Assembly: GCA_041752595.1 (NCBI GenBank)
Contig: JBGSWE010000009.1
Coordinates: 1 to 48,870 of the forward strand
DNA: 48,870 nucleotides
DNA from: Candidatus Saccharimonadales bacterium
GTDB lineage: Bacteria; Patescibacteriota; Saccharimonadia; Saccharimonadales; JACDBH01
Direction: 5' to 3'
A model generated the notes under the pieces. That model worked only from the letters and a program-made list of their open reading frames with translations, was not told the origin of the DNA and did not search any database. Position numbers and translations under genes: made by a program. Positions 8,854 through 38,633 of the stretch are shown here, piece by piece (within the stretch, counting starts at the first letter, position 1; every line of letters starts with the position of its first letter).

Positions 8854-8883
8854 TTGACTACTAATGTATATGCTTGATACAAT
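8854..8883 (+). promoter_or_regulatory. sigma70 promoter of the first LysM-CHAP gene
   Basis: TTGACT-18 nt-TACAAT with TG-A extended -10. Confidence 0.65.
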
Positions 8884-8930
8884 TACTTCTAGCTTTTTGG
8901 ATTTTTAACTACTTATATAAAGGTTTATCT

Positions 8931-10052: not shown

Positions 10053-10085
10053 AATGATCAACAGGGGTAGGGTGGTTTAATAAAA

Positions 10086-10114
10086 TTGACAAAACCATTG
10101 TAATTTGGTACTAT
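10086..10114 (+). promoter_or_regulatory. sigma70 promoter of the second LysM-CHAP gene
   Basis: TTGACA-17 nt-TACTAT with TG-G extended -10. Confidence 0.75.
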
Positions 10115-10207
10115 CTAACAGCAAAATAACTACATTGTTCTTAAAATGTTTATATTTTGCAAAAGATATTTGAATAATCGAATGAATTATCATTCAGGGA
10201 GCAAGCT

Positions 10208-14903: not shown

Positions 14904-15770
14904 ATGTCGGTAAAAGAAAATCGTCATGAGCCTTATCAAGGTTATCCTGCTGTTGGTGCAGTGCATCCTGTCATTGCTAACAGAGAACTTAGAGAGCGCT
15001 TGACGCAAATTGCTAATATCGCAGATGATATTTTCGACCACACACCGACTGAAGACGATATATTATCCTGGAATAATCCTATAGAAATTGAAGGCTTAAG
15101 CAACCCTGTGCACTTTGATCAAGAAGGAGAATCTGACCTTCCCGGACACGAAGAATTAGAAGAAGATGATACTGAAAGTACATTTGCCCAAGTATATAAT
15201 CCCACAGCTCATTATAGGATGTTTGATGCTCAGACATTAGGTCTCAGCGTCTTTCCTATGGAAGTTTCAGCAGCTATTGCAAATAGAGCACGAGCCGTTT
15301 GGAAAAAAAATGATCTTGGTCAGCTTACAAAAGAAATAATAGATCGAACGCAGCGTTATTCTCTTAGCTCTGCACTGACTATAGTGAGTGACGGATTAGT
15401 TCTTTCGGGTGGTAAACTACCGGTAGTACCACATCTACCTATTCGCTCTATGCTCGCATTTAATGTTAGCCCGGCACACTATGATGAATCTTTAGAGTGC
15501 ATATTTGAGGAGCACGAGATAGTAAAATCAGCGACCTTACGCAGAATGAAAAAAAGACCGCTTGATGTTAGGGGTATCCCACAAGATCCGATTTCAGCCT
15601 TCATACCTCATATTCCATTCATGGCATACAAGCGTGGTGCAATTCCGGCAGAAATTGCTAAGGTAAATGAAAAGATCCAAGAGCTTATGCACGATGATCC
15701 GATAGTAATGCACCTTGGAGAACTCACTACAGAACGCAGCCGTTTAGTAAGTAAGGTACGTAAGGGCTAG
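14904..15770 (+). CDS. Hypothetical protein (288 aa)
   Basis: AAGGAG RBS; TTTACA-17-TAAAAT promoter upstream; no firm family. Confidence 0.75.
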   Translation: MSVKENRHEPYQGYPAVGAVHPVIANRELRERLTQIANIADDIFDHTPTEDDILSWNNPIEIEGLSNPVHFDQEGESDLPGHEELEEDDTESTFAQVYNPTAHYRMFDAQTLGLSVFPMEVSAAIANRARAVWKKNDLGQLTKEIIDRTQRYSLSSALTIVSDGLVLSGGKLPVVPHLPIRSMLAFNVSPAHYDESLECIFEEHEIVKSATLRRMKKRPLDVRGIPQDPISAFIPHIPFMAYKRGAIPAEIAKVNEKIQELMHDDPIVMHLGELTTERSRLVSKVRKG

Positions 15771-22288: not shown

Positions 22289-22297
22289 AATATATTG

Positions 22298-23161
22298 ATG
22301 GAAAAGATTATTTTATTCTACAAATTCGTTCCAATAACAGATCCAACAACTGTTATGTATTGGCAACGTGCACTGTGTGAAAAGTTAAATCTAAAGGGTA
22401 GGATAATAATTAGTCCACACGGAATTAACGGAACGCTTGGTGGTGATCTAAAATCCCTTAAATATTACACCAGAGAAATGAAGTCCCATCCTAAATTTGA
22501 AAACATTACCTATAAATGGAGCACAGGGGGAACAGAGCACTTCCCCAAGCTAAAAGTAAAAGTTAAAACAGAAATCGTTGCATTTGACGCTGCGGACGAA
22601 ATTATAGTTGGAGAAAACGGTATAGAGAACGGTGGAAAACATCTTAAGCCCCAACAACTCCATAAATTAGTACAGGAACGCGGTGATGAAGTTTTGTTTT
22701 ATGATGGACGTAACATGTATGAAGCTCAAATAGGGCGTTTCAAAAATGCAATTATACCCAAAGTTGTTACTAGTAAAGACTTCAAAGAAGATTTAGAAAA
22801 TGGAGAAATATCAAAATACAAAGATAAGCCCATTGTTACGTATTGCACGGGTGGTATTCGCTGCGAAATATTAAGTGCGATGATGATAAATCGTGGATTC
22901 AATGAGGTATATCAGATGGACGGCGGCATCGTAAAATACGGCGAAAAATTTGGTGATGATGGTATGTGGGAAGGTAAATTGTTTGTTTTTGATGATCGTA
23001 TGAAAATAGGGTTTTCTGACAAATCAAAAGATATCGCGTCTTGTGAAAAATGTGGCGAGAAGACCAGTAATCAAATAAATTCAACAAACGTCAGACGTAG
23101 ACTTCATGTCATTTGTGAAGAATGCAAAGAAAAGAATACTAACAATCAACTTCAGCTATAA
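22298..23161 (+). CDS. trhO: Rhodanese-domain tRNA uridine(34) hydroxylase TrhO/YceA family
   Basis: GRII...GINGT, F.KLKVK, DGRNMYE..IGRF, YCTGGIRCE, W.GKLFVFDDR. Confidence 0.9.
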   Translation: MEKIILFYKFVPITDPTTVMYWQRALCEKLNLKGRIIISPHGINGTLGGDLKSLKYYTREMKSHPKFENITYKWSTGGTEHFPKLKVKVKTEIVAFDAADEIIVGENGIENGGKHLKPQQLHKLVQERGDEVLFYDGRNMYEAQIGRFKNAIIPKVVTSKDFKEDLENGEISKYKDKPIVTYCTGGIRCEILSAMMINRGFNEVYQMDGGIVKYGEKFGDDGMWEGKLFVFDDRMKIGFSDKSKDIASCEKCGEKTSNQINSTNVRRRLHVICEECKEKNTNNQLQL

Positions 23162-23439: not shown

Positions 23440-23468
23440 TTGCATAATTATTTATAAAAGAGTAAAGT
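23440..23468 (+). promoter_or_regulatory. Candidate promoter of the accessory operon
   Basis: TTGCAT-17 nt-TAAAGT. Confidence 0.5.
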
Positions 23469-23496
23469 CAAAAGTGTCATAGAGGTGTTATATGCG

Positions 23497-23610
23497 ATGT
23501 CGTTGCTCGAACTTAGTTGCCTAGCGCAAAAAATAGTCGATCAAAAACGAAACAATCCTGCTTCGTATCTTTTTCTTGAGCCATTTTACTTTAGTGAGAG
23601 CGAAGCGTGA
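23497..23610 (+). CDS. Possible 37-aa leader ORF coupled to the next gene
   Basis: AGAGGTG at 23481-23487; MSLLELSCLAQKIVDQKRNNPASYLFLEPFYFSESEA; TGA overlaps the GTG at 23607. Confidence 0.4.
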   Translation: MSLLELSCLAQKIVDQKRNNPASYLFLEPFYFSESEA

Positions 23611-25100
23611 AAAGGGAGCAAATTACACCTCAAGAAACTCTTGATGAAATCGCAGACGAAATTCGACGAACTGTACGTAATAGCCGCGATCAACAAAGCA
23701 CCCCATATTATAGGCTTGCGGTCTGTGGGTTAATAGCTGGTACGGCTGTTGTAGGAGTATTGGGTAGATTTCATGAAGTTACTAATGAATCAGAAGGCGA
23801 TAGTGAACTTGTAGCAATCCAAGACAGGATGAGTGTTGTTATAAGTGAGCACCAGAAATATGTCTACACACATTATGAAGACGATCAGCCTGGACCAATT
23901 GGAAACCCACAATCTACAAGGGTAGGTATTTTTGAACAGCATATGGAGTATATTCCAGACGGGCTTTTCAAAATGACCGCAAAAGACGACGAAGATCTAG
24001 GATTTTTCGTTCTTATGGAAGAAACAGATGGCGTTACTACTACGCCATTTAAATACGATAAAATAATTTTTTCTGCAGCTAAACCTGAGCCATGCGATAT
24101 GGACACAGTGGATAATAAAATTGTAATTGATGAATATTGCACGCCCCTTGAAGACCCAGAGTCACGTGGTCTGGAATATAGCGATGGATGGCAAGGGGGG
24201 GCATTCTTTAACGATACGAATATTACAGCTCGAACAAGAAGGCTGCATGATATTAAGGTTGGAAATGAATGGTGTGAGCTTGCAATGGTTCATGGCTCAA
24301 CGGGCATAGGTGGGCCAATAACCGAAGTAGTGAATAACGGGACAACCAGTCAAGAGGGTGATTTAAATTTCAATATAAACAATCAGAACATTTCCCCTAG
24401 AAAAGTGTATCTAGGTGTTAGGAGATCAATAATCGCATCTACTAGAAGAGATGCGTCATTACAAACTGGCTTACCACTTACTAATGCCGTAGGAATGCCA
24501 ATCTTTTTAATGCAAGAAGAAGTAGCATTTCTGAAAAGGGTTGCAGAACAACAAGGCAAGCCAATAAAAGATATGACGCCTGCTGAATATAGGTCGGCGG
24601 TTGGACTGGCCAAGATAAGTCTTAGTCAGGAATTTTTCCCAGGAGAAATTGACCCAGGGCCAACACTTGCCATGGAATTGGTTGAGTATTCAGAGAAGGA
24701 TTCAGAAGTGTCGCATCCAGAAAACGATAACGGAGACAAAATTACCGAACAAAACCAATTAACCTATGAAGAAAATTATTATTGTTTGCCATTTACTGAC
24801 ATTGATTCTATTCGTGAGTCTGAGCGTCAATGGTGGCTCAAAGAACAGCTAGGTGAGCTTGACGGGCTACAGCCATTCGCTGCTGCTTATTTACCCGATC
24901 AGCTTGATCAAGAAATTGATTTTGCTGGCAAGGAGCCTGATATGACTGATTGGCCTGTACAGATTGTTAATCTTGATCCAGTTGAAGCCCAAGCAGTAAT
25001 TGATGATTTTATGGTAAAAGCTGGTCTAAAAGAAGCTGGAGATATAAATTCTCAACTAGTAACTTCAGGTAGATTACCTAACTTATTAGGAGAAGATTAA
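23607..25100 (+). CDS. Hypothetical N-terminally anchored acidic protein (497 aa)
   Basis: Hydrophobic LAVCGLIAGTAVVGVLG near the N-terminus; no family recognised. Confidence 0.8.
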   Translation: MKREQITPQETLDEIADEIRRTVRNSRDQQSTPYYRLAVCGLIAGTAVVGVLGRFHEVTNESEGDSELVAIQDRMSVVISEHQKYVYTHYEDDQPGPIGNPQSTRVGIFEQHMEYIPDGLFKMTAKDDEDLGFFVLMEETDGVTTTPFKYDKIIFSAAKPEPCDMDTVDNKIVIDEYCTPLEDPESRGLEYSDGWQGGAFFNDTNITARTRRLHDIKVGNEWCELAMVHGSTGIGGPITEVVNNGTTSQEGDLNFNINNQNISPRKVYLGVRRSIIASTRRDASLQTGLPLTNAVGMPIFLMQEEVAFLKRVAEQQGKPIKDMTPAEYRSAVGLAKISLSQEFFPGEIDPGPTLAMELVEYSEKDSEVSHPENDNGDKITEQNQLTYEENYYCLPFTDIDSIRESERQWWLKEQLGELDGLQPFAAAYLPDQLDQEIDFAGKEPDMTDWPVQIVNLDPVEAQAVIDDFMVKAGLKEAGDINSQLVTSGRLPNLLGED

Positions 25101-25101
25101 A

Positions 25102-26286
25102 ATGTCACGGACTCCAGGCGAATTTTATGAGGATACTAGGGACCGTTACGCCAGACCGCTTGCTTACTCCGCGCTAGCTACAGCAGCCCTAGTTGGACTA
25201 TGGGCTAATACTGATATTCCTATTGTGGAACCGGGTGCTAAATTAGTTGCAGAACAACCACTGCACTTAGTCGGCTTGGTTGCACCATGGGAAAATGACT
25301 ACAACATGAATGAAACAGTTCAGCAAAGCGGTAAATTGACGCTGGACACTTACCTAGGTTCTTTTGTTAACTACACGGAAGCAAGAACTAGCTTGAAGTC
25401 AGAATTACTAGGCGAGACAATTAGCGAATCAAAAACGGCCCGAGAAGGATTAATCGTAAGTAGAATTCGTTTTCCAGGCTTAGTCACTCTGGATTGGGAG
25501 GCTGATGATGAAGTTATGTATCTTTCTAGGTTCGAAGACGGCAAAGAAGTTGGTATTCCCTTAGACAAAGCATTATTTGAAATGCAACAACCAGAAACTG
25601 CAACAGTGCAAAACGGCGAATTTAAATGTAGTCGAGAAATTGAGGATATTGACTATACAGGCTGCATTGAAGCAGATACAGTAAGAGTTGGTTATTTCGC
25701 ATATTTTCCGTTGATTGGTGAAGACCAAGGCAATAATTTACAAATTGCCGGTGAGATATTATTTGATGAGTTTGGCAAAATTGAAGAATGCCATTTCGAT
25801 AACATTTTTATACCTGCTTTTAATGAAATATACGCCGCAAATGGTATTACAAAGCGAATAGATGGGCCTGATGCATATAATGAAGTTATGCGTACTTTTG
25901 TGCGATATTTCATCCGTGAAAAAATTTCAGAAAAAACCCCACCTCAGCGAGTATTCCTAAATATAACAGGCAACTATACGCCAACTCCATCAGTAATTGA
26001 ACGCATCCAGGATAGGGCAGAGGTTGTAGACTTTCCATTTCAACTTGGAGAGGATATGGAGCCAAATTATTGCGCCCAAACTTCAAACGGTTTAATTCCG
26101 ATAACAGTTGTAGGCGAGCAAAATTTAGATAATGCATTACTAAAGATCGCTATCGGAGGTTTAGAGCAAGTTCCTGAAGGTTTTAATATCCAAACTGGTG
26201 GCTTTGAAGATGGCAAGTTTAAGGCGGCTTCCTTAGAAACTGGTCTTGGGGATTTAGTAAAAACTAATGTATTGGGAGGTCGGTAG
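25102..26286 (+). CDS. Hypothetical N-terminally anchored protein (394 aa)
   Basis: AGGAG RBS; 1 nt after the upstream stop; TM PLAYSALATAALVGLW. Confidence 0.8.
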   Translation: MSRTPGEFYEDTRDRYARPLAYSALATAALVGLWANTDIPIVEPGAKLVAEQPLHLVGLVAPWENDYNMNETVQQSGKLTLDTYLGSFVNYTEARTSLKSELLGETISESKTAREGLIVSRIRFPGLVTLDWEADDEVMYLSRFEDGKEVGIPLDKALFEMQQPETATVQNGEFKCSREIEDIDYTGCIEADTVRVGYFAYFPLIGEDQGNNLQIAGEILFDEFGKIEECHFDNIFIPAFNEIYAANGITKRIDGPDAYNEVMRTFVRYFIREKISEKTPPQRVFLNITGNYTPTPSVIERIQDRAEVVDFPFQLGEDMEPNYCAQTSNGLIPITVVGEQNLDNALLKIAIGGLEQVPEGFNIQTGGFEDGKFKAASLETGLGDLVKTNVLGGR

Positions 26287-26287
26287 C

Positions 26288-27205
26288 ATGGCAAACTTAG
26301 ATGAAGTACGAGCTAGGTTTGAACAAAATCCAGTAGTTATCCCAGGTTTTGTTCCTGAATCAACTGAAGCTAGTTCACCTGATCAGCGAGAATTTATGGA
26401 TTCATTTAGCGGAGTAAGCACTACTGAAACTCCAGCAATTAGTACCGAGGCTCAGAGTCAAATAGATGCACTTGAGCAAAGAATAGAAAATCTACAAAAT
26501 GCATTTGTAGCTAGTGGTAACCCACAGGTAAGTCGTGCCGAAACGCTTGCATTAGCAGGCATGGCTAACTCGATTGCAAACAGCACTAGACGTGAACGTT
26601 TAAGCAAAGGTAAAATTGCTGCCATTGCAACAGTCGGTGCAGTCTTAGGTGCTGGTGGTATGTTCCTTTTACTTAAAGACGAGCTTAATGATTACGCGGC
26701 TGCAGCAAACTCATGCGAATTCCCACAACCAAACAACGGTACGCCTTTTATAGAAGACGAAAGCTCTCAAAGCGCTTCCGCATCACCAACTACAGTCGCT
26801 GTTCCACCATCAAATCGAAATGCAGTAACTAATGGCAGTCCAGGAGAAGTCATATCCCCAACAATTGCAGGCAATTTACTATTAGAGGGCGCTGCACCTG
26901 CAATACAAGAATTTAGTGACGGTAGTTTTGTAGAAAGCCAAACAACTTTTCAGTGGAAAACACTTACAGTTAATGAAAGTCACGACAATTATGTTATACA
27001 GCTGCTACAACAAGCTCCAGCTGGTTTTGTTGCAGACTCACGAATGCAAAGATATATAGCTGAAGGAGATTATACGAAAGAGGAGCTATTGCAGTTCCTG
27101 GTTGTAAATAATGCAGTAGATCCAAATGTTTCTTCGGCATTTATTAAACTCGTTGGCTCAGATTCTGAACAGCTAACAGAAATTGTTGTAGGGAGTCAGT
27201 TATGA
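26288..27205 (+). CDS. Hypothetical single-TM protein with short coiled coil
   Basis: GGAGGT RBS before ATG 26288; QIDALEQRIENLQ; TM IAAIATVGAVLGAGGMFLLL. Confidence 0.8.
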   Translation: MANLDEVRARFEQNPVVIPGFVPESTEASSPDQREFMDSFSGVSTTETPAISTEAQSQIDALEQRIENLQNAFVASGNPQVSRAETLALAGMANSIANSTRRERLSKGKIAAIATVGAVLGAGGMFLLLKDELNDYAAAANSCEFPQPNNGTPFIEDESSQSASASPTTVAVPPSNRNAVTNGSPGEVISPTIAGNLLLEGAAPAIQEFSDGSFVESQTTFQWKTLTVNESHDNYVIQLLQQAPAGFVADSRMQRYIAEGDYTKEELLQFLVVNNAVDPNVSSAFIKLVGSDSEQLTEIVVGSQL

Positions 27206-30096
27206 ACCGCGAAGAATTAAGCTTTTTTGAAAAATCTTTGATTGCTGTTCCGGCAGTTGTCATACCAGCTGTACTATTCTTTAGCCAAGAAACGCAAGCC
27301 GCCCCAGAAGAAACACAAGATAGTTCACCTGAAACACAAGCTAAACAACCTCAAGAGGCCGCACTAGTTGAGGCAGAACCTCAAAAACCCAAAGATAACA
27401 CTACACTCACAGTAACGGGAGGTGAAACTAATAATGGTATTGCTGAACGCTATGGATTACCTGTCGAATCTGTACGGCGCGCAAGTGGTTCAGATAGGCT
27501 TGTTGCTGGACAGCAGATTGTGCTTTCGCGACCTGCTGAAACTCCTGCACCAGATGTTGATGAGCCAGAAGAAGATAGCTCAAACAATTTTGAAGTAACT
27601 ACACCTGCAATTCCAAGTCCATCAACTCCTAACAATATCCCAACAACTGAACAGGGTCCCGTAGAGCCTGCACCAGTAGTAAACACAACAGTAACAACCA
27701 CCCCTGAAGTTAGTAATTCTAACGTACAAATAGTTCCAGCAACCAACACTCAACCAACCTTTATAAGCATGCCTTCTATATCCCATACACCTGCAACACC
27801 CGAACAGGCAGAGCCAGATAGCCTAGATTCTAATCAGGCTTCTGCGCAAAATAACGTTGAGTCTATAGTTGCACCGTCAGCAGAAACGGTCGAGATGTCA
27901 AATGCAGTACTTTCTGAAAACCCAGCCGCAAACGCGTACTTTTCACCACCCCCTCAGTTTACCCAATCTTCTAGCGGTCGTAACTTTGTGGCTCCTCGAG
28001 CAAGTAGAAATGACAATTTTATAAGTAGTTTTGCAAACAGTGCAATTAATTTACTTGATGTAGAAAAACTTGAAGATAGCCCAACTCAAGAGACAGCTTC
28101 ACGACAAACCGGTGGTAATCAGCCTTTTGAAGTAATAACAGATGTTCCAACGCGTATTTCGTTTGAAGATGGTGGTTTGACTATTGAAGTTTTGGCTAAC
28201 TCAAATAGCAATTCAAGCCAAAGTGCGCCAAACGGTTCATCAGCTACGCCGACGGTTAACCAAACAACACCAGAATCAGATCCAGTAATTACTATGCCCG
28301 GTGATAGAACAACTACTTCACAGCCAGGTAACATTCCACCACTAACCATAGATCCAGGTGCAATACCTGGTGAATCAACTACGCAGCCAGAAAATAGCTC
28401 AAACAATTCATCTGCTCCACGAAAACAATTAGCCGAGGCGGTAGTAGTAGATTTTCAGGCGGGTGGTAAGCCGGATATAACACCTCTTTATCAAAGTATA
28501 GTTCAAGATCCTACATACAGGGCTCAACCCGAAGGATATTATTTTATGCCACAACCATTAGTTGTTGATGGTGTACCAGAATACTTGTTTAGTAATGGAA
28601 CAAATCGTAGCGAACAACGTGCAAATCCGGAATTAATTGCTGTAAGCTTGGCCGTTACTGAATTTGCTTCTAATCTAAACGGTCCTGAATTCGTTACTGA
28701 GGTAGGTGATTTGAACTCTCTCTATCACAAAGAACATGACGGTGAAAAACCTGCAATAGATCTTAGAAGCCGTGGCATGCAAGACCCCGAAGGCTCAAAT
28801 AATGGCCCTTTGTTTGTAGAAACTAGTCCAAATAGAGACCTGCAAAAACAGTATGCGATGTTGCAGTATTTGCGCAGACTACATATTAACGGCGTACCTG
28901 CCGTTAAGTATGTTATGGGTTATTCTGACGAACTTCTCGAAAGAGCAAACGAAGATCCAGAAATGCGTCGTACCGAAGCTAGGAAAAAGAACTTCTTCTT
29001 ATCTGAAGCAGACCATCAGGAGCATTGGCACATCGCCCTAAATCCAGCAGCTTTCTCGAGGTTGCCGATAGCAGATACTGGTAGCTGTGGTGAGGCTTGT
29101 GGTGATAATTCACCAGGAATTACGACATACCAACAAGCAATTGAGCAAGCACAGCACGTTAGTGTATCTAGTGGCATACAAGGAATAAGTTATGTTGATC
29201 CAGCATCTGGAAATTTGTCTCCCAACAACGACCAACCTATCGAAGATTCTTTTCAACAAAATCCAACTACCGTTGTAGACGTTCAACCGGCTTTGGGTTC
29301 TTTTCTAAATCGACAAGTACTAACACAAGCCGAGTATTGGCTACAACAGCAAGCGATTAGTGCTGGGGTATTGCCAAGGGGTGTAGTTGAAATAAGTCCT
29401 GTAGTTGAAGCACCAGTCGCAGTATCTGCGCCAGAAGTTGTGACTACCGTTGAATCAACTACAGAAAATCGCTACGGTATGCCAGCAGAAGCTTTCGCGC
29501 TGTTAAGTCCCGAGGCCCAAAATTATCAAGTACGTACGCGCGCAGAAGTAGATGCTGCAGTAGAAGTCAATGGCTATCGAAGCGGTAATCTAGATGTAGA
29601 ACGTGCTTACGGGCCAGCAATTAGTTACAACGATATATATGTTTTAGAACGATTTGCTGGCCATAGTCCAATAGAGGCATTCTTATTCACTGGTATTGCT
29701 GGACGCGAGAGTAGTGCCCGTCCGGCCAGTGCTGGTGATTTTCATAACGGGCATGATGGTTCATATGGTTTGCATTCAATACTTACCTACAACGATAAAC
29801 CAAATCCGCTGCGCGACCCTACTACAAACCTAAGCCCTTGGAACAATACTCTCAATGCACGAGAAATGTATCTTCAGTCTGGCTTGAGCCCGTGGGAAAC
29901 TAAAGACATTAGTGAAATATCTGAAGAACAACTTTATGATGCAATCCGACTAGGGCACCGAAATAACGGCAGAGGTGAAGGCGCAAGCTTTGAGGAACAC
30001 TGTCGTAAAGCCGCCCAGCAAGCATATGCAGCGTATCTACAAATGGAGCCTCTTGTATCACAAGCATTGCAAGGGCAAGAGGTGTTAACAGCATGA
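27202..30096 (+). CDS. Secreted or anchored multi-domain cell-wall hydrolase: LysM + P/S/T/N linker + MepA-like Zn peptidase + lysozyme/SLT-like domain
   Basis: LysM-like TVTGGETNNGIAERYGL...LVAGQQIVL; VGDLN..HKEH......IDLR and HQEHWH; IAGRESS..P.....SYGL..I....P..N...A..MY...GLSPW. Confidence 0.8.
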   Translation: MNREELSFFEKSLIAVPAVVIPAVLFFSQETQAAPEETQDSSPETQAKQPQEAALVEAEPQKPKDNTTLTVTGGETNNGIAERYGLPVESVRRASGSDRLVAGQQIVLSRPAETPAPDVDEPEEDSSNNFEVTTPAIPSPSTPNNIPTTEQGPVEPAPVVNTTVTTTPEVSNSNVQIVPATNTQPTFISMPSISHTPATPEQAEPDSLDSNQASAQNNVESIVAPSAETVEMSNAVLSENPAANAYFSPPPQFTQSSSGRNFVAPRASRNDNFISSFANSAINLLDVEKLEDSPTQETASRQTGGNQPFEVITDVPTRISFEDGGLTIEVLANSNSNSSQSAPNGSSATPTVNQTTPESDPVITMPGDRTTTSQPGNIPPLTIDPGAIPGESTTQPENSSNNSSAPRKQLAEAVVVDFQAGGKPDITPLYQSIVQDPTYRAQPEGYYFMPQPLVVDGVPEYLFSNGTNRSEQRANPELIAVSLAVTEFASNLNGPEFVTEVGDLNSLYHKEHDGEKPAIDLRSRGMQDPEGSNNGPLFVETSPNRDLQKQYAMLQYLRRLHINGVPAVKYVMGYSDELLERANEDPEMRRTEARKKNFFLSEADHQEHWHIALNPAAFSRLPIADTGSCGEACGDNSPGITTYQQAIEQAQHVSVSSGIQGISYVDPASGNLSPNNDQPIEDSFQQNPTTVVDVQPALGSFLNRQVLTQAEYWLQQQAISAGVLPRGVVEISPVVEAPVAVSAPEVVTTVESTTENRYGMPAEAFALLSPEAQNYQVRTRAEVDAAVEVNGYRSGNLDVERAYGPAISYNDIYVLERFAGHSPIEAFLFTGIAGRESSARPASAGDFHNGHDGSYGLHSILTYNDKPNPLRDPTTNLSPWNNTLNAREMYLQSGLSPWETKDISEISEEQLYDAIRLGHRNNGRGEGASFEEHCRKAAQQAYAAYLQMEPLVSQALQGQEVLTA

Positions 30097-30213
30097 TTAG
30101 CAATTTAATTCATCATGGCATGTTCTACCTCGATGGATACGGGGAGGGGCGTATGCGGTGAGGAAAGACAACTACTTAAGTAAATTTAAATAATTGAAGG
30201 ATAGGATAAATAA

Positions 30214-30795
30214 ATGAGAAGAGTACAGCAAACCGAAACAGGTGACAGGGTTAAAACAGCTGTTGCAGAAAATAGTTTAAGTGGTGGGCTAATCACAGTC
30301 GCCGATGCAACTGGTAATGCAGTCAATAATACCTACAAAAGCAAATCAGTCCGATTAGTAGCTTTAGGCGCTCTAATTGCTACTGGCGGAATCGTATCGG
30401 TTGCTGCTGGAGTATGGGACGGTGGTAGGACAGTAGTAAGTGGTACCAGAGCAGGCCTTGAGGATGGTATAGATAGAGTTACGGGCGGAGAAGGCGTGAC
30501 AGTCAATGGCCCTAGTGTGGAGTTAGGTGATGAAACTACTGGTGGACAAACCTTCGGCGTAACACCAGCTGGCGAAGCTGCCGCTCCTGTCGAAGCAAGT
30601 GGATCAGCAATTCCACAAGAAACCCTATCACTAGGTGCTGGTGCAATCATTAGATTCTGTGGTGTTGAACCAAACTATGACCCAGCTGTGCTTCAAAGCC
30701 AGTGGCAACCAATTGCAGAAGCAAACCCAGGTGTATTCAACACAGATGTCAATAATCCAAGTATCGATGCAGGCGACCAAGGCTTCTGCTTGTAG
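30214..30795 (+). CDS. Single-TM protein with degenerate LysM-like C-terminus
   Basis: TM LVALGALIATGGIVSVAAGVW; C-terminal WQPIAEANP......NP.I.AG. Confidence 0.7.
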   Translation: MRRVQQTETGDRVKTAVAENSLSGGLITVADATGNAVNNTYKSKSVRLVALGALIATGGIVSVAAGVWDGGRTVVSGTRAGLEDGIDRVTGGEGVTVNGPSVELGDETTGGQTFGVTPAGEAAAPVEASGSAIPQETLSLGAGAIIRFCGVEPNYDPAVLQSQWQPIAEANPGVFNTDVNNPSIDAGDQGFCL

Positions 30796-30823
30796 TTAAC
30801 AAGAAAATTAGGAGTAAAAAATA

Positions 30824-31621
30824 ATGGGACATTTAGACCCTTTGATTGAGCAACAGTTTCGTGAAGCTGCTCAGAGAATTCAACAACAAGAAGCTGCCGA
30901 AATGGCGACAATGGATGGTGATCCCACAAATGTTCGTTTAGAACTAGAGAGAGATCTAAGTTACTTTTTTGGAACAAATAAGCGCAATGCGCATCCTCAG
31001 GCAGGGGTTTTATTTCCTGCCTGTAACCGGGTAGAGAGCGACTATTTAAACGAAGATTTTTTTCAGTTTTACCCTGATCTTTCGAGTTTAAGGCCGGACG
31101 GTAGTGCTATAGGTAGTGAAAACGCTATAAAAGGCGGTTACAAACAAGTGATATCAGTGCCTTATAACCCACATCCAATTCAGGGTGGCATGAAAGCTTA
31201 CGAGCGAGTCGGATTTCTTTACCAAGGAACAAGATTACTAGCTTACACGCATTTTTTTGACCTTGGCGACGGCGTTGGTCCAATAAGTCGTGACGACCAG
31301 GATACTCTAGACAAAGGAGCAGTTTTTTTGGATGATAAAATTATTGTACTAGTACCCCGCGAAGGTTCAGCACCCCAAGCAGGAGTTTTTGCTAACGGAG
31401 AAGAACTACAAGAATTTCTTACAACCCATCTTTACGACGAATTAGATGAACTTACCAGGAAGCCTCACAAAGAAACTACACCAGCGAATCCAGACTACGC
31501 TTCACGTAATGAAAAGTTAGCTCAAAGTGCCAAGACAATAGGTAAATTGCCAGTAGTTTTTGCCTTTAGTGTGTTTGGTAGAAATGATAAAGCTAATTCA
31601 TTTGGGCGTGGTAGGAAATAA
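30824..31621 (+). CDS. Hypothetical cytoplasmic protein (265 aa)
   Basis: AGGAG RBS; no TM or motif recognised. Confidence 0.75.
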   Translation: MGHLDPLIEQQFREAAQRIQQQEAAEMATMDGDPTNVRLELERDLSYFFGTNKRNAHPQAGVLFPACNRVESDYLNEDFFQFYPDLSSLRPDGSAIGSENAIKGGYKQVISVPYNPHPIQGGMKAYERVGFLYQGTRLLAYTHFFDLGDGVGPISRDDQDTLDKGAVFLDDKIIVLVPREGSAPQAGVFANGEELQEFLTTHLYDELDELTRKPHKETTPANPDYASRNEKLAQSAKTIGKLPVVFAFSVFGRNDKANSFGRGRK

Positions 31622-31631
31622 GTAACTTGAT

Positions 31632-32963
31632 ATGAGTCATAGAGAGCACTTACATATTTCTTTAGATCATATAGATTTATTGCGTCGTGGTGATCTAAAC
31701 GCTGCCTGGGAAGCAGTAAACGGAGTGTTCGAAGAGGCTAACGCAGGACTCAACATCTACGAGGTTCCCATGGCATATGCTTTAGTTGATAGCCTAAGAG
31801 ATTCGCAAGGTTTTAATGGTGAGCCAATAGAAGGCATTGGTTTACTGGCTCTTAGAACATATCCAGAAAATTCCAAGCATAAAATTCCAAAAGTATTTGG
31901 CGCAACAGAAGAATTAATTGAGGGTCTAGATGCATCTGGTGAGCGTGTCGTTATGGTTAGAAATAAAAAAGGAGAACTATGGCGTACTCTTCATGTGCTT
32001 AACGCTCGTGGTTTCGATGCGTTGAGTCAGCAGGCCGGTTCAAGCGATTTAATAATTGAGGGCACAAAGTTATCCGAATCAGAAAGCACAATGCTTGAAC
32101 TTTGGGCAAGAAGACAACTAAAAGACGGTAGTGGGTTTTTGCCCGACGCTATTGTAGTAGATGATTTAGGTATAGTTCCACATACTCGCTGGTTACTTAG
32201 ACTATTAACCGAACAGCACACAACATCACTAGAAATGAAAGAGCGTTTGCGCGATTGTGATATTAAAGTAGCTGCAACAGCTGAACAGCCCAAGAGATTG
32301 TTCAATGAAAAACTCGAAGGTTTTATAGACCGTGAAACAACTCGGCTAAGAGTGAATGGTGGAGCCTATACTGTTGACCGGGCTGGTTTTGATACTTTTA
32401 CTGACAACTTAGAAAGAGTGTATCGACACATCGGGAATTACAGTAGTGAAAGTCCAGTGTTAATGAGTTTATCGCAAGACCAATCAATTGCAGCAATTAC
32501 TGGTGTTTTCAGGCTTCGTCTATATGAAATTGGTAAAGAGCTTGCCGAAGCTAAAAGTTTAGGATCTGGCGATCTCCCGGTATTGCTTGAAAGGATAAAA
32601 CAACACGACGAAGAGTCAGTACAAAAACTAAGAGCCTACATTTTTACAAATAAAGATGCCCAGGAATCAACCCACGAGAACAATGCAGTACTTGTTCCTT
32701 CTGATTTTATAGACACATTATGGGAAACAATGGACAGTAGATTTGGCGATAATGTAGTGCTAGCAAGTCATAAGAATGATTTTGATAATCCATATGCAGT
32801 TATATGGTACGGCGAAAGATATTTATTAACATTTGTACCTTCAACTATCGCAGAGCACACATGGCTACACATTGATAGTTTGCCAGCTACAGAAGTAAGT
32901 GATGATGATATAGCTGAATTTAGGGAAGTAATAGGGAAACAGCTCGGTAAAGATAGTGAATAA
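31632..32963 (+). CDS. Hypothetical cytoplasmic protein (443 aa)
   Basis: Long ORF 10 nt after the upstream stop; no motif recognised. Confidence 0.78.
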   Translation: MSHREHLHISLDHIDLLRRGDLNAAWEAVNGVFEEANAGLNIYEVPMAYALVDSLRDSQGFNGEPIEGIGLLALRTYPENSKHKIPKVFGATEELIEGLDASGERVVMVRNKKGELWRTLHVLNARGFDALSQQAGSSDLIIEGTKLSESESTMLELWARRQLKDGSGFLPDAIVVDDLGIVPHTRWLLRLLTEQHTTSLEMKERLRDCDIKVAATAEQPKRLFNEKLEGFIDRETTRLRVNGGAYTVDRAGFDTFTDNLERVYRHIGNYSSESPVLMSLSQDQSIAAITGVFRLRLYEIGKELAEAKSLGSGDLPVLLERIKQHDEESVQKLRAYIFTNKDAQESTHENNAVLVPSDFIDTLWETMDSRFGDNVVLASHKNDFDNPYAVIWYGERYLLTFVPSTIAEHTWLHIDSLPATEVSDDDIAEFREVIGKQLGKDSE

Positions 32964-33019
32964 ATTTATTTTACATTTTGACAACTTAGTATTATTATAG
33001 AACAAATTGAGGAGTGAAT

Positions 33020-35014
33020 ATGAGTGATAATTTTGGCATGGTGCCACCAGCAAGTGGACCAGAATCAATTAAACAGATTTGGGATGACGAACTAGATAGT
33101 ACCCAAAGATACGAACCAATAGTTATTGAGGTTGAGCCACCAAAACCGCAGGCCGAACAAGTTCGCTTAAGTCCATACGCGGGAATGACTCGTATACCGG
33201 AGTCTATTAGAGGCTTTGTGCCTGAAGAATATGTAATTACTATAAACGGCATTGAATTGGTTGACGATATGTTAGTTGGTGTATTAGAAGAAGCCGAACA
33301 AGAGCGTGAACTATTTGAGCGTGATTATGCTCCAGAGGATGTAAGCAATGCCGACAAAGAGTTGTTATTTTATCTTGGTGATGAAGTTTGGCAGGATGAT
33401 AATAATTCCTGGGTAAATTATGCTAGTAGAAAAGCTGTTCGCGAAGCCAAAGAGCGTCTTGAGCGAGATCGAGAAACTTTGCTAACAGCAGAAAATGACC
33501 ATGAGTCACACATTGCATCCAAGCGGCTTGAGGCTGAAGGTACGGTCCTTGATATGTTGGATAGATTTGGAAACTTCAGTCTTATTAAAGAACTGCTTGA
33601 CGATCCAATATATCAGCATCCAGCTGCAGAAATACTGAACTCAGCATACCGTGGAGCTTTGGCGATCTGTCTAGAGACTGCGATTAGTGGTAACGATGAA
33701 GAAGCATCCGGCAGGTTGGTTCAAAAATTTGTTTTAGATAATCTTGAACTTATTGACCGTACTCGTCAAGACGATAAACAAACTCTTCAGTTGAGTGGTT
33801 TTGATCCGGAAGAATTTTATATTGATAAGACAGATGAACAGATGAGACTACACCGTAATGTTGTTGGTTACTATGTTCATTTTTTGCTTACGCATGCACA
33901 GCGTAAATTTTCAATTGATGAATTTGAACAACTCAGAGCCGCTGCCGAAACACCTGATTTATCAGCCAGGCAAAATGGAATTTTTGCACGTTTGCACCGC
34001 AAGATAGTAGAAAAATCCGGTGTAGAAGTAGTAGTAGAACAAACACCAGCCGAGGTTCTACAGTCTAAACTGGATAAAATAATGAACACTCAGTCACATC
34101 AAGATGAGGCGATGGCACGCGCAAACCAAAGGTTGCAAGATCTTTTAAGCGAAAAATCAGCACTGCTTTCAAGTGAAGGTATGACAACACCGATTGATAT
34201 TAATAATCCAGAGAACAACCCACTTCTATGGGTCACAGACAAAGTGCAAGCATACAATAACTTGATGGATTTTTCTGAAGTTACACAAAATTTCAGAGGA
34301 TTTGATGTAGCTGGCGACGGAGTTACCATAAATGGAAATCTGTTAAAAGGCTTTGCAGATATGGTACGAACTGATGATATTGATCGCTTAAGTGCTAGAA
34401 TGGGCGACACAAAAGGTCCGATTGGTCGTAAAATGATTAAAATCGATAAATCTCAAGCATCTAGTGAGTTGGTAAGATTTGAAGACGGTGCAGAGCTTGA
34501 TCTTGGACAATACAGCCAAAGCGAAGAAGAGGCTGTTGCATATGTCGGGATAGTTAGACGCAATCAAGGTGATAGACCATTGAACGGTGCTTTTCTTGTA
34601 GAAGCTTGGCCACACGCCTACAAACCAATTTTTAGCCAAGGACCAGAAGACCCAGACAAAGCAGTTAGACTAATAACCTATCATTTGACCGATGCTATGG
34701 CTGCACTAGTTAGTGCTGACTATATATCATTCTATGCACCTGGTGGTAGGGCTGCACATGGTAATCTAGATGCAAAAATGTTTGATGATCTGTACAGATA
34801 TACGCAACGTGGTATTAAGCCTGGTGTTGATACCTTTAGAGAAGGTATCAGTAAGAGTCGTGATGAAAGCGTACGTGCGTATGTAATACCTAAGTTTGTG
34901 ACTCCTGCCGGTGAATTACCCGTGCCCCATCATAATAGAGGTCAAATAAATCAAACAACTGGTTCACAAGAAATACCCCGCACTCCTAATACAACTGATT
35001 TTTTAGATATCTAA
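33020..35014 (+). CDS. Hypothetical acidic protein (664 aa)
   Basis: GAGGAG RBS before ATG 33020; TTTACA-17-TATTAT promoter-like element upstream. Confidence 0.8.
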   Translation: MSDNFGMVPPASGPESIKQIWDDELDSTQRYEPIVIEVEPPKPQAEQVRLSPYAGMTRIPESIRGFVPEEYVITINGIELVDDMLVGVLEEAEQERELFERDYAPEDVSNADKELLFYLGDEVWQDDNNSWVNYASRKAVREAKERLERDRETLLTAENDHESHIASKRLEAEGTVLDMLDRFGNFSLIKELLDDPIYQHPAAEILNSAYRGALAICLETAISGNDEEASGRLVQKFVLDNLELIDRTRQDDKQTLQLSGFDPEEFYIDKTDEQMRLHRNVVGYYVHFLLTHAQRKFSIDEFEQLRAAAETPDLSARQNGIFARLHRKIVEKSGVEVVVEQTPAEVLQSKLDKIMNTQSHQDEAMARANQRLQDLLSEKSALLSSEGMTTPIDINNPENNPLLWVTDKVQAYNNLMDFSEVTQNFRGFDVAGDGVTINGNLLKGFADMVRTDDIDRLSARMGDTKGPIGRKMIKIDKSQASSELVRFEDGAELDLGQYSQSEEEAVAYVGIVRRNQGDRPLNGAFLVEAWPHAYKPIFSQGPEDPDKAVRLITYHLTDAMAALVSADYISFYAPGGRAAHGNLDAKMFDDLYRYTQRGIKPGVDTFREGISKSRDESVRAYVIPKFVTPAGELPVPHHNRGQINQTTGSQEIPRTPNTTDFLDI

Positions 35015-35031
35015 ACCACCAAATACTGTAA

Positions 35032-37026
35032 TCAACTTTGGGCGAGGCGTGCTTGATTGGCTTGTTCAATACTACACCAAGACCCAATTAGTGGGGCTAT
35101 AGCAGCCGCAGTAACTTTTGCTGGCCTATTTCCACCATCAGATTCACTACCGAGTGATGTTAGGCTTCCTGGCTGGCGTTCGATAACGAAAATTGTCTTG
35201 TTTCTACCATTTTCATCACAAAAAACTGCACTATTAGCGGCAGAAACATTGTTAGCAGCAGTACCCGTTTTGTCGGCTATCTCTGTGCTTCCTGCTATTC
35301 CTGCAAAAGCATTTGCTGCTGTTCCCGATTCAATCACGCCAGTCATCATTGCTGTAAGTTGTACGGTGAGTTCTGGTGGATCAATTTGTTCAAAAACAGG
35401 CGCAACGTATTCTGATACTTGACCATTATCCAGCTGAAAACTATTTACAAAGCGCATATCGCTATCTTGTCCCTGACGAGCTACGGTTTTCTGAACGGCC
35501 ATGGCGCGTTCCTCTGGTGTAATTTCTTGTCCTCCAAGAATAATGGCAGGGCCAACCAATCCACCAGGTTCCATGTCCAGTGTTTCCATTCTACTGAGTG
35601 TGGTGGATAGGATAGGGTCACCAGCTTCTTCAAGCCGTTTTACTTCACCTACAAATGCACCATTCACAGACTTTTCTAAAGATATCTCTAGAGTACAGAT
35701 TCTGTTTGGGCAATGATTAGTCTCAGTAACGCTATAGTTGCGTCCGTTACCATCATAATTTAGCCACTCCACGCTGTCTGGATCGGGCATTGGGGACTGG
35801 CTAGTGTAGCCTCGCTCTAAAAGTTCCATAACAAAATGAATTTTATCAAGCGAACCACCAATGACCGGTGACTCAAGTAAGTTTACGTTTGGACCATTTT
35901 TTTCGTATAAACCAGGAATATATCCTGTTACAGCGCCACTATCGTCAATGAACATAGTCCCATATTGGCGTCCGTCGGCTGGCAAAGGAACACTTTTGAT
36001 TGCATTTTGAAGCGCTGTTTGATCTTTCTTTAGTATTGTCGAACGAATGCGTACATTACTAGCCATTAATTCGTCATAGCTCATGCCGCTGGCTTTTATG
36101 ACCTGCTCGATAATTTCATCCACCACCGCTCGTGCATTTATACTATCTGCTTCTGCATAATTACTACCAACTCTAGATTGTGGGGAGTATGGTAATCTTG
36201 TGAGCGGACGCATTTTGTATTCATCTGCTTGTGCTTGAGTAAGCCTACCTAACTCAACTTGATTCTGTAGTACTTCATTACGTCTTATAATTCCATTATC
36301 ACGCGCAATCTGGTCTTCATTAGCATTTTCTTTTGGCGCATATTTTTCTGGATTTTGCAGTGCACCAACCAAGAAAGAAGCTTCATCAATTTCTAACTGG
36401 CTGGGGTCCTTGCCAAAATACATCATACTAGCTTCATATATGCCGTATGAACCATTGCCCCAATACATAGAGTTAAGATAGAGTTTTACAATTTCAGTAT
36501 CTGCAAAGGCATCGTCTAGTGTCGGAGCTATCTCAAAAGACTCCCAAAACTTTCGAGAAATAAGGTTATCGGGTACATCACCAATGTAATATATGCGACT
36601 TAACTGTTCTCTGATACCAGAGCCACCCCTTGGATTGCCCCTTAATGTATCGACGGCTGCTTTGAGGAGACCCATAACATTTGGTCCATTGACCTCACAA
36701 TATTCGCGGTCTTCAGTACTAAAAAGCGCCCAAATTAGATCTGGATCAACTTGCGAGGATAATTCTTCCTTCACCATAACGCCTTCTGTGCAAACTGCAG
36801 GAATTGTATCAACTGGTGTAGAGTTGCCGCTACGTATTTGCGCAAGTGGAGTAGTACATTCAGGATCGTCGTCATAACAGACAGTGATACTGCCTAGAGG
36901 TGTAGCCTCAGGGCTAGGCTGGGGCAATTCTGTCGAACAGCTTGCAAGCACACTGGTGCCCAAAAAGGCTCCAACTCCAAGCACTCTCATAAGACGATTG
37001 CTTTCTGCAACAACACCCTGTTCCAT
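35032..37026 (-). CDS. Divergent class A penicillin-binding protein (GT51 + transpeptidase) with lipobox
   Basis: VLASC lipobox; GT motifs TEDREY, GGSGIREQL, RKFWE, YLN..YWGNGSYGI..AS..YFGK; TP motifs SLDK, SVN, KTGT. Confidence 0.88.
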   Translation of the reverse strand: MEQGVVAESNRLMRVLGVGAFLGTSVLASCSTELPQPSPEATPLGSITVCYDDDPECTTPLAQIRSGNSTPVDTIPAVCTEGVMVKEELSSQVDPDLIWALFSTEDREYCEVNGPNVMGLLKAAVDTLRGNPRGGSGIREQLSRIYYIGDVPDNLISRKFWESFEIAPTLDDAFADTEIVKLYLNSMYWGNGSYGIYEASMMYFGKDPSQLEIDEASFLVGALQNPEKYAPKENANEDQIARDNGIIRRNEVLQNQVELGRLTQAQADEYKMRPLTRLPYSPQSRVGSNYAEADSINARAVVDEIIEQVIKASGMSYDELMASNVRIRSTILKKDQTALQNAIKSVPLPADGRQYGTMFIDDSGAVTGYIPGLYEKNGPNVNLLESPVIGGSLDKIHFVMELLERGYTSQSPMPDPDSVEWLNYDGNGRNYSVTETNHCPNRICTLEISLEKSVNGAFVGEVKRLEEAGDPILSTTLSRMETLDMEPGGLVGPAIILGGQEITPEERAMAVQKTVARQGQDSDMRFVNSFQLDNGQVSEYVAPVFEQIDPPELTVQLTAMMTGVIESGTAANAFAGIAGSTEIADKTGTAANNVSAANSAVFCDENGRNKTIFVIERQPGSLTSLGSESDGGNRPAKVTAAAIAPLIGSWCSIEQANQARLAQS

Positions 37027-37124: not shown

Positions 37125-38633
37125 ATGATTTCAGATAATTTGACCAAGAAACTTGCCCAGCTCCCCAAAGAGCCAGGAGTTTATTTTCATAAGAACAATA
37201 AGGGTGAAATTATTTATGTCGGAAAAGCTGCGGTTCTTAAAAACCGCGTCAGGCAATACTTTCAGGCATCACGTAATCGTGACCCTAAGACCGAAGCTCT
37301 AGTTGCTGAAATAACAGATGTGGATTGGATTACTGTCGAAAGCGAAATAGATGCCTTATTCTTAGAAGCCGAAATGATTCGTAGGTATATGCCGCGCTAT
37401 AATATTTTACTTCGTGATGACAAATCCAATACTTATGTGAGGATAGACATAAAGAGCAACTATCCCAGTGTTACCTATACCAGAAATCCAATGGACGACG
37501 ACGCGCTGTATATAGGGCCATATATATCAGCCGTTAGTGTTAAGCGCGCGCTTAAATATTTACGAAAGATATTTCCTTATTCAATCCACAGCGTATTACC
37601 AAATAGGGCATGTTTACAATTTCATTTAGGTTTGTGTCCGGGTCCTGAAACTGGTAATCTTGATTCGCAGAAATATAAAACTGATCTCAAGAAACTGATT
37701 ATGTATCTTAGGGGTGACCGGATAAGACTTATGAATCAGCTAGAAAAAGAAATGCTGGACTATTCAAAGAAGAAAGATTTTGAACACGCTGCAACTTTAC
37801 GAAATGAACTTATCGCACTTAAAAACTTAAACCGACAAATAATATTTAGCGATACTGAATTTATGGACCTAAGCCGTGATCATGCACTTAATGATTTAAG
37901 CGAGTTGCTAAGTCTAGAAAAAATTCCTAGACGAATAGAGGGCTATGATATTTCACATATGTCTGGTACAGATACGGTTGCAAGCATGGTTGTATTTACG
38001 AATGGAGTTTCAGATAAAGGTTCTTACCGTAAGTTTAAAATGCGTATTCCCGGTAACGATGACTTTGCCCATATGCATGAAGTGCTTGAACGTCGACTTA
38101 GTGAGAAACATGCAAAAGATTGGCCAAAACCTAATCTATTTCTGATAGATGGGGGTAAGGGTCAGTTAAGTAGTGCGTTAGACGTATTATCCTCGCATAA
38201 TGTTTTTATTCCTGCAATTGGACTAGCAAAGCAGTTCGAAGAAATAATTATCAAAAAAGATTGGCCGTATTTGCAACTTAATCGCAGTAAATTAGAAGAA
38301 TTAAACGGTACTGCATTAGAAAATGATGAATTTATATCTCTTAGGCTACCTCATTCATCTCATATTATTAAACTATTACAGAGAATACGTGATGAATCGC
38401 ACAGATTTGCTGTAAGTTATCACACGGTCCTTAAAACAAAACGACAAGTAAGTAGTGCCTTAGACGATATCCCTACAATCGGGCCTGAAACACGCAAAAA
38501 GCTATTAAAAACTTTCGGTAGCTATAAAGGCATCGAGCAAGCTAGAGATTTTGAACTTATAAAGGTGGTGGGTGAAAAGAAGGCTACGATATTACGTCAA
38601 TATATGAGACCTTATCGCAAAAATGAGTTATGA
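37125..38633 (+). CDS. uvrC: Excinuclease ABC subunit C
   Basis: GIY-YIG (PGVY..IIYVGKA), RIEGYDISH, LIDGGKGQ, RIRDESHRFA, HhH. Confidence 0.97.
   Translation: MISDNLTKKLAQLPKEPGVYFHKNNKGEIIYVGKAAVLKNRVRQYFQASRNRDPKTEALVAEITDVDWITVESEIDALFLEAEMIRRYMPRYNILLRDDKSNTYVRIDIKSNYPSVTYTRNPMDDDALYIGPYISAVSVKRALKYLRKIFPYSIHSVLPNRACLQFHLGLCPGPETGNLDSQKYKTDLKKLIMYLRGDRIRLMNQLEKEMLDYSKKKDFEHAATLRNELIALKNLNRQIIFSDTEFMDLSRDHALNDLSELLSLEKIPRRIEGYDISHMSGTDTVASMVVFTNGVSDKGSYRKFKMRIPGNDDFAHMHEVLERRLSEKHAKDWPKPNLFLIDGGKGQLSSALDVLSSHNVFIPAIGLAKQFEEIIIKKDWPYLQLNRSKLEELNGTALENDEFISLRLPHSSHIIKLLQRIRDESHRFAVSYHTVLKTKRQVSSALDDIPTIGPETRKKLLKTFGSYKGIEQARDFELIKVVGEKKATILRQYMRPYRKNEL

Follow-up and report, generated by a model that had tools for sequence, protein, structure and literature searches.

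Does a run of nine open reading frames (ORFs) between the core genes trhO and uvrC of a Candidatus Saccharimonadales bacterium form one unit, and if so, what would that unit do to a cell wall? The ORFs, named o1 to o8 and followed by a convergent class A penicillin-binding protein (PBP), lie within the window analysed here, a stretch of 48,870 nucleotides (nt; GenBank contig JBGSWE010000009.1, our contig C9) from an 889-kb genome that is 98.8% complete (assembly GCA_041752595.1, hereafter G000). A first-pass annotation, made from the letters of the window, had proposed an accessory island encoding a membrane-anchored apparatus that breaches or remodels peptidoglycan. We confirmed that the nine-ORF block is real and no chance run of orphans.

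Conserved linkage at a variable site

The block keeps both its gene order and its site in distant relatives. In G166 (family f7), trhO is followed by o1–o4 and four same-position genes, then by the convergent PBP, two additional anchored genes and uvrC, with phmmer E-values of 5e-26 for o1, 1e-37 for o2, 4e-7 for o3, 1e-21 for o4 and 1e-96 for the PBP; o5 and o8 are tied to their G166 counterparts by position and motif. G353, which shares its genus with G166 in a family other than the window’s, carries trhO-o1-o2-o3-o4-o5 on one contig (o3 at E 1e-8) and has an o8-like gene, the PBP, a pair of anchored genes and uvrC on a second, and G009 holds trhO-x-o1, o1-o2, o4-o5-o6 and o8-PBP on four short contigs. 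The accessory island proposed at first pass is thus borne out by order and site in G166 and G353 and by the pieces in G009, with homologues that stay linked across families rather than being scattered. Five further genomes (G006, G013, G046, G085 and G163) have divergent versions between trhO and uvrC that combine a PBP with a long hydrolase and single-anchor proteins, the first four of them offering a comparable parts list in shuffled orientation, and G164 has similar neighbours around its PBP with other core genes on the one visible side. Nine of the ten carriers (G000, G006, G009, G013, G046, G085, G163, G166 and G353) have the island PBP at trhO, at uvrC or at both, or else within the same set of genes.

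Within the window, trhO (22295–23161; NCBIfam NF001133 above cut-off) is the left core flank of the variable site and uvrC (37125–38633; Pfam UvrC domains) the right, both on the + strand together with o1–o8. As the first-pass annotation had it, the eight co-oriented genes begin with four that are tightly coupled: the intergenic gaps from o1 through the PBP measure 1, 1, −4 (ATGA), 117, 28, 10, 50 and 17 nt, and a GGAGG motif stands just 5′ of the o3 start at 26288. All island reading frames are open. The island is spanned by one contig at even depth in one sequencing run, possibly the source run, and no joint skipping it was found in three other runs (contigs only). We found no paralogues of o1–o8 elsewhere in the genome and no long terminal repeats at the island ends, where the repeats are short chance pairs, and promoter and terminator scans of the island returned chance level only. 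The GC content at third codon positions (GC3) of the island genes, leaving out o5 as too short, lies between the 3rd and 53rd percentile of the genome and therefore gives no foreign signature. Net acidity above 0.05 is found in 8/9 island products versus 87/718 crude ORFs of the genome, and since those 87 pass the same mark, acidity alone is not special.

To place the block among its relatives, we surveyed up to 20 kb 3′ of trhO, a gene present in 204 of 251 genomes of the order, using 80 genomes chosen among 150 listed matches, a sample that favoured long contigs and kinship and was not random. The uvrC gene followed trhO in 77 of the 80 fetched loci, and the distance between the two (n = 77) was at most 400 bp in 32, 0.4–3 kb in 31, 3–10 kb in 12 and more than 10 kb in 2, so that 63 of the 77 junctions do not exceed 3 kb. 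The trhO-uvrC junction is a variable site, at which the large island is exceptional. A profile of the island PBP matches 10 of 401 order genomes (E 1e-75 or better), five of them outside the profile, and an o2 profile matches 5 of 401, four of which are in the profile rows or nearly identical to them; in G001, of the same genus as the window and 93% complete, o1, o2, o4, o8 and the island PBP are all without match. G008 has a 9-kb junction version that keeps the hydrolase without the PBP.

Between G166 and G353, the flanking genes are 61–86% identical and the alignable island proteins 24–30% (PBP 28%, o1 24%, o2 27% over 107 amino acids (aa)), and for o3, o4, o5 and o8 no BLAST alignment reached significance. 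Across the two families, the order of the genes persists at 24–35% identity. In a 13-row PBP tree, G000, G009, P0027, G166 and G353 form a clade (support 100/100) that leaves out G006 and G013 of the window’s own family, and a quick uvrC tree keeps families f1 and f7 apart. Because of this divergence within one genus and the conflict between the PBP and uvrC trees, the island block has likely been swapped whole at a fixed site. Natural competence occurs in this bacterial group. A related strain from a second study (run X4) differs from the window by 6–7% in pieces of o1, o2 and o4 and by 2–4% in pieces of trhO, uvrC and o5–o8, as read from short, low-depth contigs.

Several further observations concern the junction and its versions. 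The closest island PBP in a genome (L020, on G009 contig C141) is split into three frames around assembly gaps, and the o1 and o2 of G009 are also broken, via gaps or real decay. Small island versions at trhO-uvrC (L050, L056, L061, L101, L104, L107 and L109) consist of a modular hydrolase of 820–970 aa followed by a single-anchor protein of 330–380 aa, the latter falling into two families without Pfam match. The junction of 11 relatives contains a HAD-family gene, accompanied in four of them by a diacylglycerol-kinase-like partner (L055, L064, L066, L068, L069, L072, L073, L075, L081, L083 and L095). Just 5′ of trhO, G046 has five tandem ABC-exporter-like paralogues (L138:4866–13856), G163 two such genes and the window one. 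G046 also has three Thr-rich anchored island proteins (L139; contig C5, ~94650–97530), two of which have near-identical N-terminal halves and different tips.

A probable modular hydrolase and a surplus synthase

The fourth gene, o4 (27202–30096, 964 aa), encodes what is probably a peptidoglycan hydrolase with LysM, peptidase and lysozyme-like parts and long Pro/Thr/Ser linkers, and belongs to a cluster that numbers 18 proteins or fragments, all from this site. Its hydrophobic leader is followed by TQA-A, and a small-x-Ala motif after the leader is found in 8 of 9 counterpart hydrolases but also, the test being loose, in 7 of 11 other island proteins. The leader is probably a cleaved signal peptide and o4 secreted, so the membrane anchor that it had been given was not borne out. 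The degenerate LysM (residues 70–108; 27409–27525) scores 14.5 bits in Pfam (E 0.035), below the 20.9 cut-off. The middle domain (residues 426–620; 28477–29061) is a putative zinc peptidase with H509-x2-H512-x7-D520 and H605-x2-H608-x-H610, of which D520, H605, H608 and H610 are invariant in 9/9 rows, with HxxH in the consensus of the island hydrolases; we take the motif to resemble those of LAS/MepA-type zinc peptidases. Its profile matches 22 of 251 genomes, nine being profile sources or the window itself, and the domain is without Pfam or PDB sequence match, with the sole exception of one member in nine to DUF5715 (E 0.016). The lysozyme-like domain at the C-terminus (29458–30075) has a conserved putative catalytic residue, E836, and is kept in G009 and G166. 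It matches SLT_3 weakly (E 0.071) over nearly the whole model and is 31% identical to an unmistakable SLT_3 domain in L053 (80 aa aligned, E 3e-6); a PDB sequence search with it returned nothing significant. The earlier description of o4 as a LysM/peptidase/lysozyme-like protein agrees with its motifs and invariant residues, with the LysM sub-threshold and the enzyme matches weak.

Counterpart hydrolases in other islands are built from Amidase_2, M23, GH19-like, phage tail lysozyme, SLT, glucosaminidase and GDSL domains. Modules are swapped from island to island, with Amidase_2 and M23 in G166, GDSL and phage tail lysozyme in G013, M23 and GH19-like in G046, and glucosaminidase or SLT in the small versions. 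The annotated genes of the large islands are nearly all peptidoglycan-related, and extra wall enzymes occur across the islands (GH3 in 2, PG_binding_1 in 3, Amidase_3 in 1).

Convergent with o1–o8 on the − strand lies the island-type class A PBP (35032–37026, 664 aa; 687 aa in the database call, which uses a longer start), a predicted polymerase and cross-linker. Its presence is as the first reading had it, and its catalytic motifs are intact: Pfam Transgly (PF00912) scores 115.9 bits (cut-off 27) with the catalytic E105 in EDREY, and the transpeptidase motifs are S392-L-D-K, S453-V-N and K586-T-G. PF00905 does not score on the window PBP but does on P0027, G006 and G013, and the E, SxxK, SxN and KTG residues are present in 9/9 full-length island PBPs. 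With all these motifs, a transglycosylase and a transpeptidase, it resembles the PBP1a family (TIGR02074), from which it differs in scoring 195 bits against a cut-off of 509, in being a second, fast-evolving copy with extra conserved Cys pairs, and in the lipobox that one of its clades carries in genomes without detected Lgt. A distinct housekeeping PBP (1002 aa, contig C10; 145 bits to the island-PBP profile) makes the island PBP surplus. The housekeeping PBP is little changed between G000 and G001 (path 0.18 versus 2.5), and the island PBP diverges about ten times faster with its active sites kept.

The lipobox reads LASC (Cys30) in G000, VTGC in G166 and LSAC in G353, the three full-length PBPs of the window’s clade, and is found in none of the other six. 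Searches whose controls were positive in 10 of 14 cases detected Lgt (PF01790) in 0/6 genomes of 92–99% completeness, a very divergent enzyme being possible, and LspA (PF01252) in 0/1. The PBP had been called a lipoprotein at first pass; the conserved lipobox Cys supports the call, and the failure to detect Lgt and LspA speaks against it. Two acidic ORFs elsewhere in G000 (C2:2830–3798 and C3:74360–74971) also have textbook lipoboxes, in a genome without detected Lgt or LspA.

Companion genes and known systems

Five products had been annotated as having one membrane anchor each, and o1–o5 do have one hydrophobic stretch each (17-residue maxima 2.25, 1.44, 2.11, 2.33 and 2.21), o4 being the probably secreted member. 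The maximum of o2 is weak and no higher than that of o8 (1.43); its family has an N-terminal hydrophobic segment, where the structural model of o2 places a helix. The first protein, o1 (23607–25100, 497 aa, hydrophobic stretch 37–55, 5 Cys), has homologues in G009, G166 and G353 and no match in Pfam, PHROG or NCBIfam. It is a probable paralogue of o2 (25102–26286, 394 aa, N-terminal anchor): hhalign between the two families gave 31% over 122 columns that include a Cys pair, and 76% after the addition of a row first found by the o2 profile.

The o2 family has 23 representatives in 1.84 billion proteins, one of them a likely stray, and its alignment (A6; 21 representatives plus P0003) has four invariant Cys. 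With 22 rows, the AlphaFold2 model of o2 reached a predicted local distance difference test (pLDDT) of 81.9 and a predicted template-modelling score of 0.75, against a pLDDT of 34 with only 5 rows, and it consists of an N-terminal helix, a long beta hairpin, further strands and a helical part. Foldseek found no match to this model in PDB or BFVD at E 0.001; the best VIA match has a Z of 4.9 (YicC), no VirB8-like chain is among the 50 VIA matches listed for the whole-chain model, and the ESM Atlas gave no usable match for o1 or o2. The o2 fold is therefore one without a convincing solved match and may be new, although the lack of a match does not prove it so. The predicted o1-o2 complex scored 0.00, a result that speaks neither for nor against pairing.

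The o3 protein (26288–27205, 305 aa) has a hydrophobic stretch at 113–135 and a small C-terminal domain, and its homologues in G166 and G353 stand at the same position; weak NCBIfam matches were seen in o3 and o4. For o5 (30214–30795, 193 aa), which has a Cys-bracketed C-terminal domain after its hydrophobic stretch, there is an orthologue in G009, and the same-position proteins of G166 and G353 align only by eye; neither o5 nor these counterparts match LysM (PF01476), which leaves its supposed LysM-like tail without support from a hidden Markov model (HMM). Three soluble orphans follow the anchored genes, as annotated, and are without Pfam, PHROG or NCBIfam match: o6 (30824–31621, 265 aa; homologues in G009 at E 2e-17 and, weakly, in G166 at E 0.006), o7 (31632–32963, 443 aa; a weak link to the same-position G166 gene, E 0.007) and o8 (33014–35014, 666 aa), which has an acidic N-terminus, a fragment in G009 (E 6e-7), no PDB match and a C-terminal domain whose H-L/I-T motif is common to the same-position proteins of G166, G006 and G353. 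PDB sequence searches with alignments A6, A13 and A14 found nothing significant, and among the hhalign comparisons of protein groups (45 + 17 chosen pairs) the o3, o5, o6, o7 and o8 groups had no significant link to the same-position groups of other island types.

By eye, o1 and o2 have what we take to be a likeness to DUF4230 (PF14014), a single anchor and a beta-rich body followed by helices. That they are DUF4230 proteins was not supported: 0/22 o2-family members match and there is none in G000, hhalign of the o1, o2 and partner families against DUF4230 gave probabilities of at most 1.2% (3-row alignment), and o1 and o2 differ from DUF4230 proteins in being larger, Cys-rich and without HMM match. 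A DUF4230 gene does lie directly 3′ of a modular wall hydrolase in G119 and G066, 2 of the 3 genomes passing the cut-off, the same pairing as in the small trhO-uvrC versions, which hints that DUF4230 partners wall hydrolases. The two loci (L123:1–2584 and L124:1–2543) hold a hydrolase with, by eye, lysozyme-like and peptidase-like parts, the DUF4230 gene and a small anchored protein. Deletion of a DUF4230 gene is reported to be without biofilm phenotype (10.64898/2026.03.25.714184).

The first-pass annotation had seen no integrase, capsid, VirB4/VirD4 or FtsK ATPase, and scans of Pfam, PHROG and NCBIfam agree, with no integrase, capsid or ATPase family in o1–o8 and no prophage, integrative and conjugative element (ICE) or type IV secretion system (T4SS) parts detected in the block. 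No integrase or relaxase is found among the 38 window ORFs scanned, PHROG matches 0/8 of o1–o8 and in the block only the PBP, viral contigs hold no relatives of o2, and the TraG-D_C ATPases of the genome are on contigs C4 and C13 only. The VirB1-like hydrolases reported for the T4SS of monoderms and Patescibacteria are, like o4, exported, with glycan- and peptide-cutting domains and often LysM or M23, and those of Patescibacteria are often distant from virB4; no VirB8 homologue is reported to have been seen in S. epibionticum (PMC12102498). The island has no VirB4, VirD4 or VirB6, is accessory and brings along a class A PBP of its own, which sets it apart from a T4SS. It did not qualify as a member of any system tested.

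Elsewhere in the window, two tandem LysM-CHAP genes (8874–11335) lie 3′ of a YceG-like gene, where G085 has one copy, and two ORFs among core genes (14904–15770, 288 aa; 5701–7389, 562 aa) are without Pfam or NCBIfam match.

Possible cutting and rebuilding at a host junction

What could such a block be for? The breaching or remodelling of peptidoglycan proposed at first pass is supported in that wall-cutting domains are paired with a PBP bearing catalytic motifs. We tentatively favour, as quite possible, that the island is an exchangeable cassette that cuts peptidoglycan and builds it anew at the point of contact between the parasite and its presumed host; every step past gene content, linkage and motifs is one that we infer. 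Exported o4 would bind the wall via LysM and cleave both peptides and glycan in the wall of the host or in a shared wall, and the island PBP would polymerise new strands and cross-link them to the ends left by cutting, so that the junction is sealed or welded. The o1 and o2 proteins, with o3 and o5, might form a membrane scaffold holding both enzymes in place, with o6–o8 as its cytoplasmic side, and whole cassettes would be replaced by recombination in the conserved flanks, which would fit the enzymes to the wall chemistry of the host. The surplus PBP and the hydrolase change in concert and much faster than the housekeeping PBP; a variable substrate, such as host walls, accounts for this more readily than the cell’s own wall does, and it is this argument that leads us to favour a host-junction module over the alternatives below. 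Hosts within the Actinomycetia and strain-level host specificity have been reported, in a study whose main text makes no mention of lipoprotein, peptidoglycan, lysozyme or penicillin (PMC10633639), and pilin adhesins are reported to bind peptidoglycan and wall polysaccharide (10.64898/2026.10.06.756255).

Bdellovibrio, a predator that cuts and cross-links the wall of its prey with the DD-endopeptidases Bd0816/Bd3459, the LD-transpeptidases Bd0886/Bd1176 and a porthole (PMC10127604), serves as a works-like model only, and no homology is claimed; here synthesis would fall to a class A PBP, the genes sit together in a single swappable cassette, and the organism presumably remains outside its host. 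A bolder version, which we consider a long shot, is that of an undescribed host-junction organelle, in which a secreted, domain-swapping hydrolase opens the host wall, the PBP covalently welds the parasite wall to it around a two-paralogue scaffold or conduit of new fold, the PBP of one clade is lipidated by host Lgt (proposed because no Lgt was detected in the parasite) and cassette swaps switch host range. If so, lipidation by host Lgt would place a wall synthase of the parasite in the host membrane.

A number of points weigh against the host-junction cassette. Most relatives are without the island (PBP in 10/401 and o2 in 5/401 genomes, nothing in same-genus G001), and attachment in general cannot depend on so rare an island. 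In G008 and some nine small versions the hydrolase is present without the PBP, so that cutting and building are not always linked, the small versions mostly retaining one or two anchored partners beside the hydrolase. Acidic orphans of fast turnover are common in the genome, o6–o8 are weakly homologous between islands with most same-position groups unlinked by hhalign, and o4 is assigned its peptidase and lysozyme domains from motifs and weak matches. As to the swap, the uvrC tree is a quick search, the PBP tree has long branches, and their conflict was judged without a formal topology test.

Of the alternatives, a remodelling of the cell’s own wall is somewhat unlikely but has the most to commend it: the PBP and hydrolase would form an accessory pair, synthase plus hydrolase, that serves a particular state (survival as free-living cells, a change of shape or the passage of an appendage), or would change the surface against phages or predators. 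A membrane-tethered class A PBP needs lipid II, which comes most simply from the own cell, the GH3 and PG-binding genes of other islands are in keeping with turnover, and surface genes under phage pressure also diversify fast. Own-wall chemistry should, however, be near-constant within a genus, yet the G166 and G353 PBPs are 28% identical with hydrolases that cannot be aligned, and the housekeeping PBP has stayed nearly unchanged over the G000–G001 comparison. A trans-envelope conduit or lance, with o1 and o2 as tube or ring, o4 drilling, the PBP collaring the hole and o6–o8 as cargo or base, strikes us as decidedly unlikely. It would make sense of two paralogues stabilised by Cys, with a long hairpin and a fold that has no match, and of the tube, measuring 8.6 nm in width and 61 nm in length, and the lance-like structures described in Ca. 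Mycosynbacter amalyticus, unexplained features of a Saccharibacteria-host junction that must cross walls; for these the accessible part of the source names no genes (PMC11880426). A feeding conduit should nevertheless be common whereas the island is rare, the block has no ATPase, and o1 and o2 appear to keep their anchors.

That the junction is a recombination hotspot collecting unrelated surface genes, so that the nine genes are not one unit, is in our view improbable. The many unrelated inserts there (31/77 of 0.4–3 kb and 12/77 of 3–10 kb), the differing order and orientation in G006, G013, G046 and G085 and the many acidic orphans of the genome would be expected of a hotspot, but not an order kept at such low identity across two families, translational coupling of the first four genes, or large islands whose annotated genes nearly all concern peptidoglycan. 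A decayed or very divergent ICE or prophage, with o4 as its VirB1-like or tail hydrolase, is largely refuted and very improbable: the patchy distribution, the fixed insertion site and a multi-domain hydrolase like that of monoderm VirB1 (PMC12102498) would suit it, and set against these are a sole PHROG match to the PBP, no o2 relative in viral contigs, no integrase or ATPase (the TraG-D_C ATPases being on other contigs), no long terminal repeat, GC3 within the genome range, open frames throughout, and flat depth without an island-skipping joint in four runs of contigs.

The locus appears undescribed: we found no description of it, and none linking Patescibacteria with DUF4230, in titles and the starts of abstracts of mostly open papers, although the genome-wide tables of PMC10633639 and PMC12102498 could list its genes. 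The island is rare and its function is one that we infer, and these limits apply to what follows. It is unusual for a class A PBP to diverge fast while its active sites stay intact, a lipobox kept in genomes without detectable Lgt points to an unfamiliar lipidation chemistry or to the use of host enzymes, and o2 is a confidently modelled protein without a solved structural match. For the study of how Patescibacteria cross a host wall without losing their own, and of what underlies their narrow host range, this locus offers a well-delimited set of swappable genes whose site is fixed.

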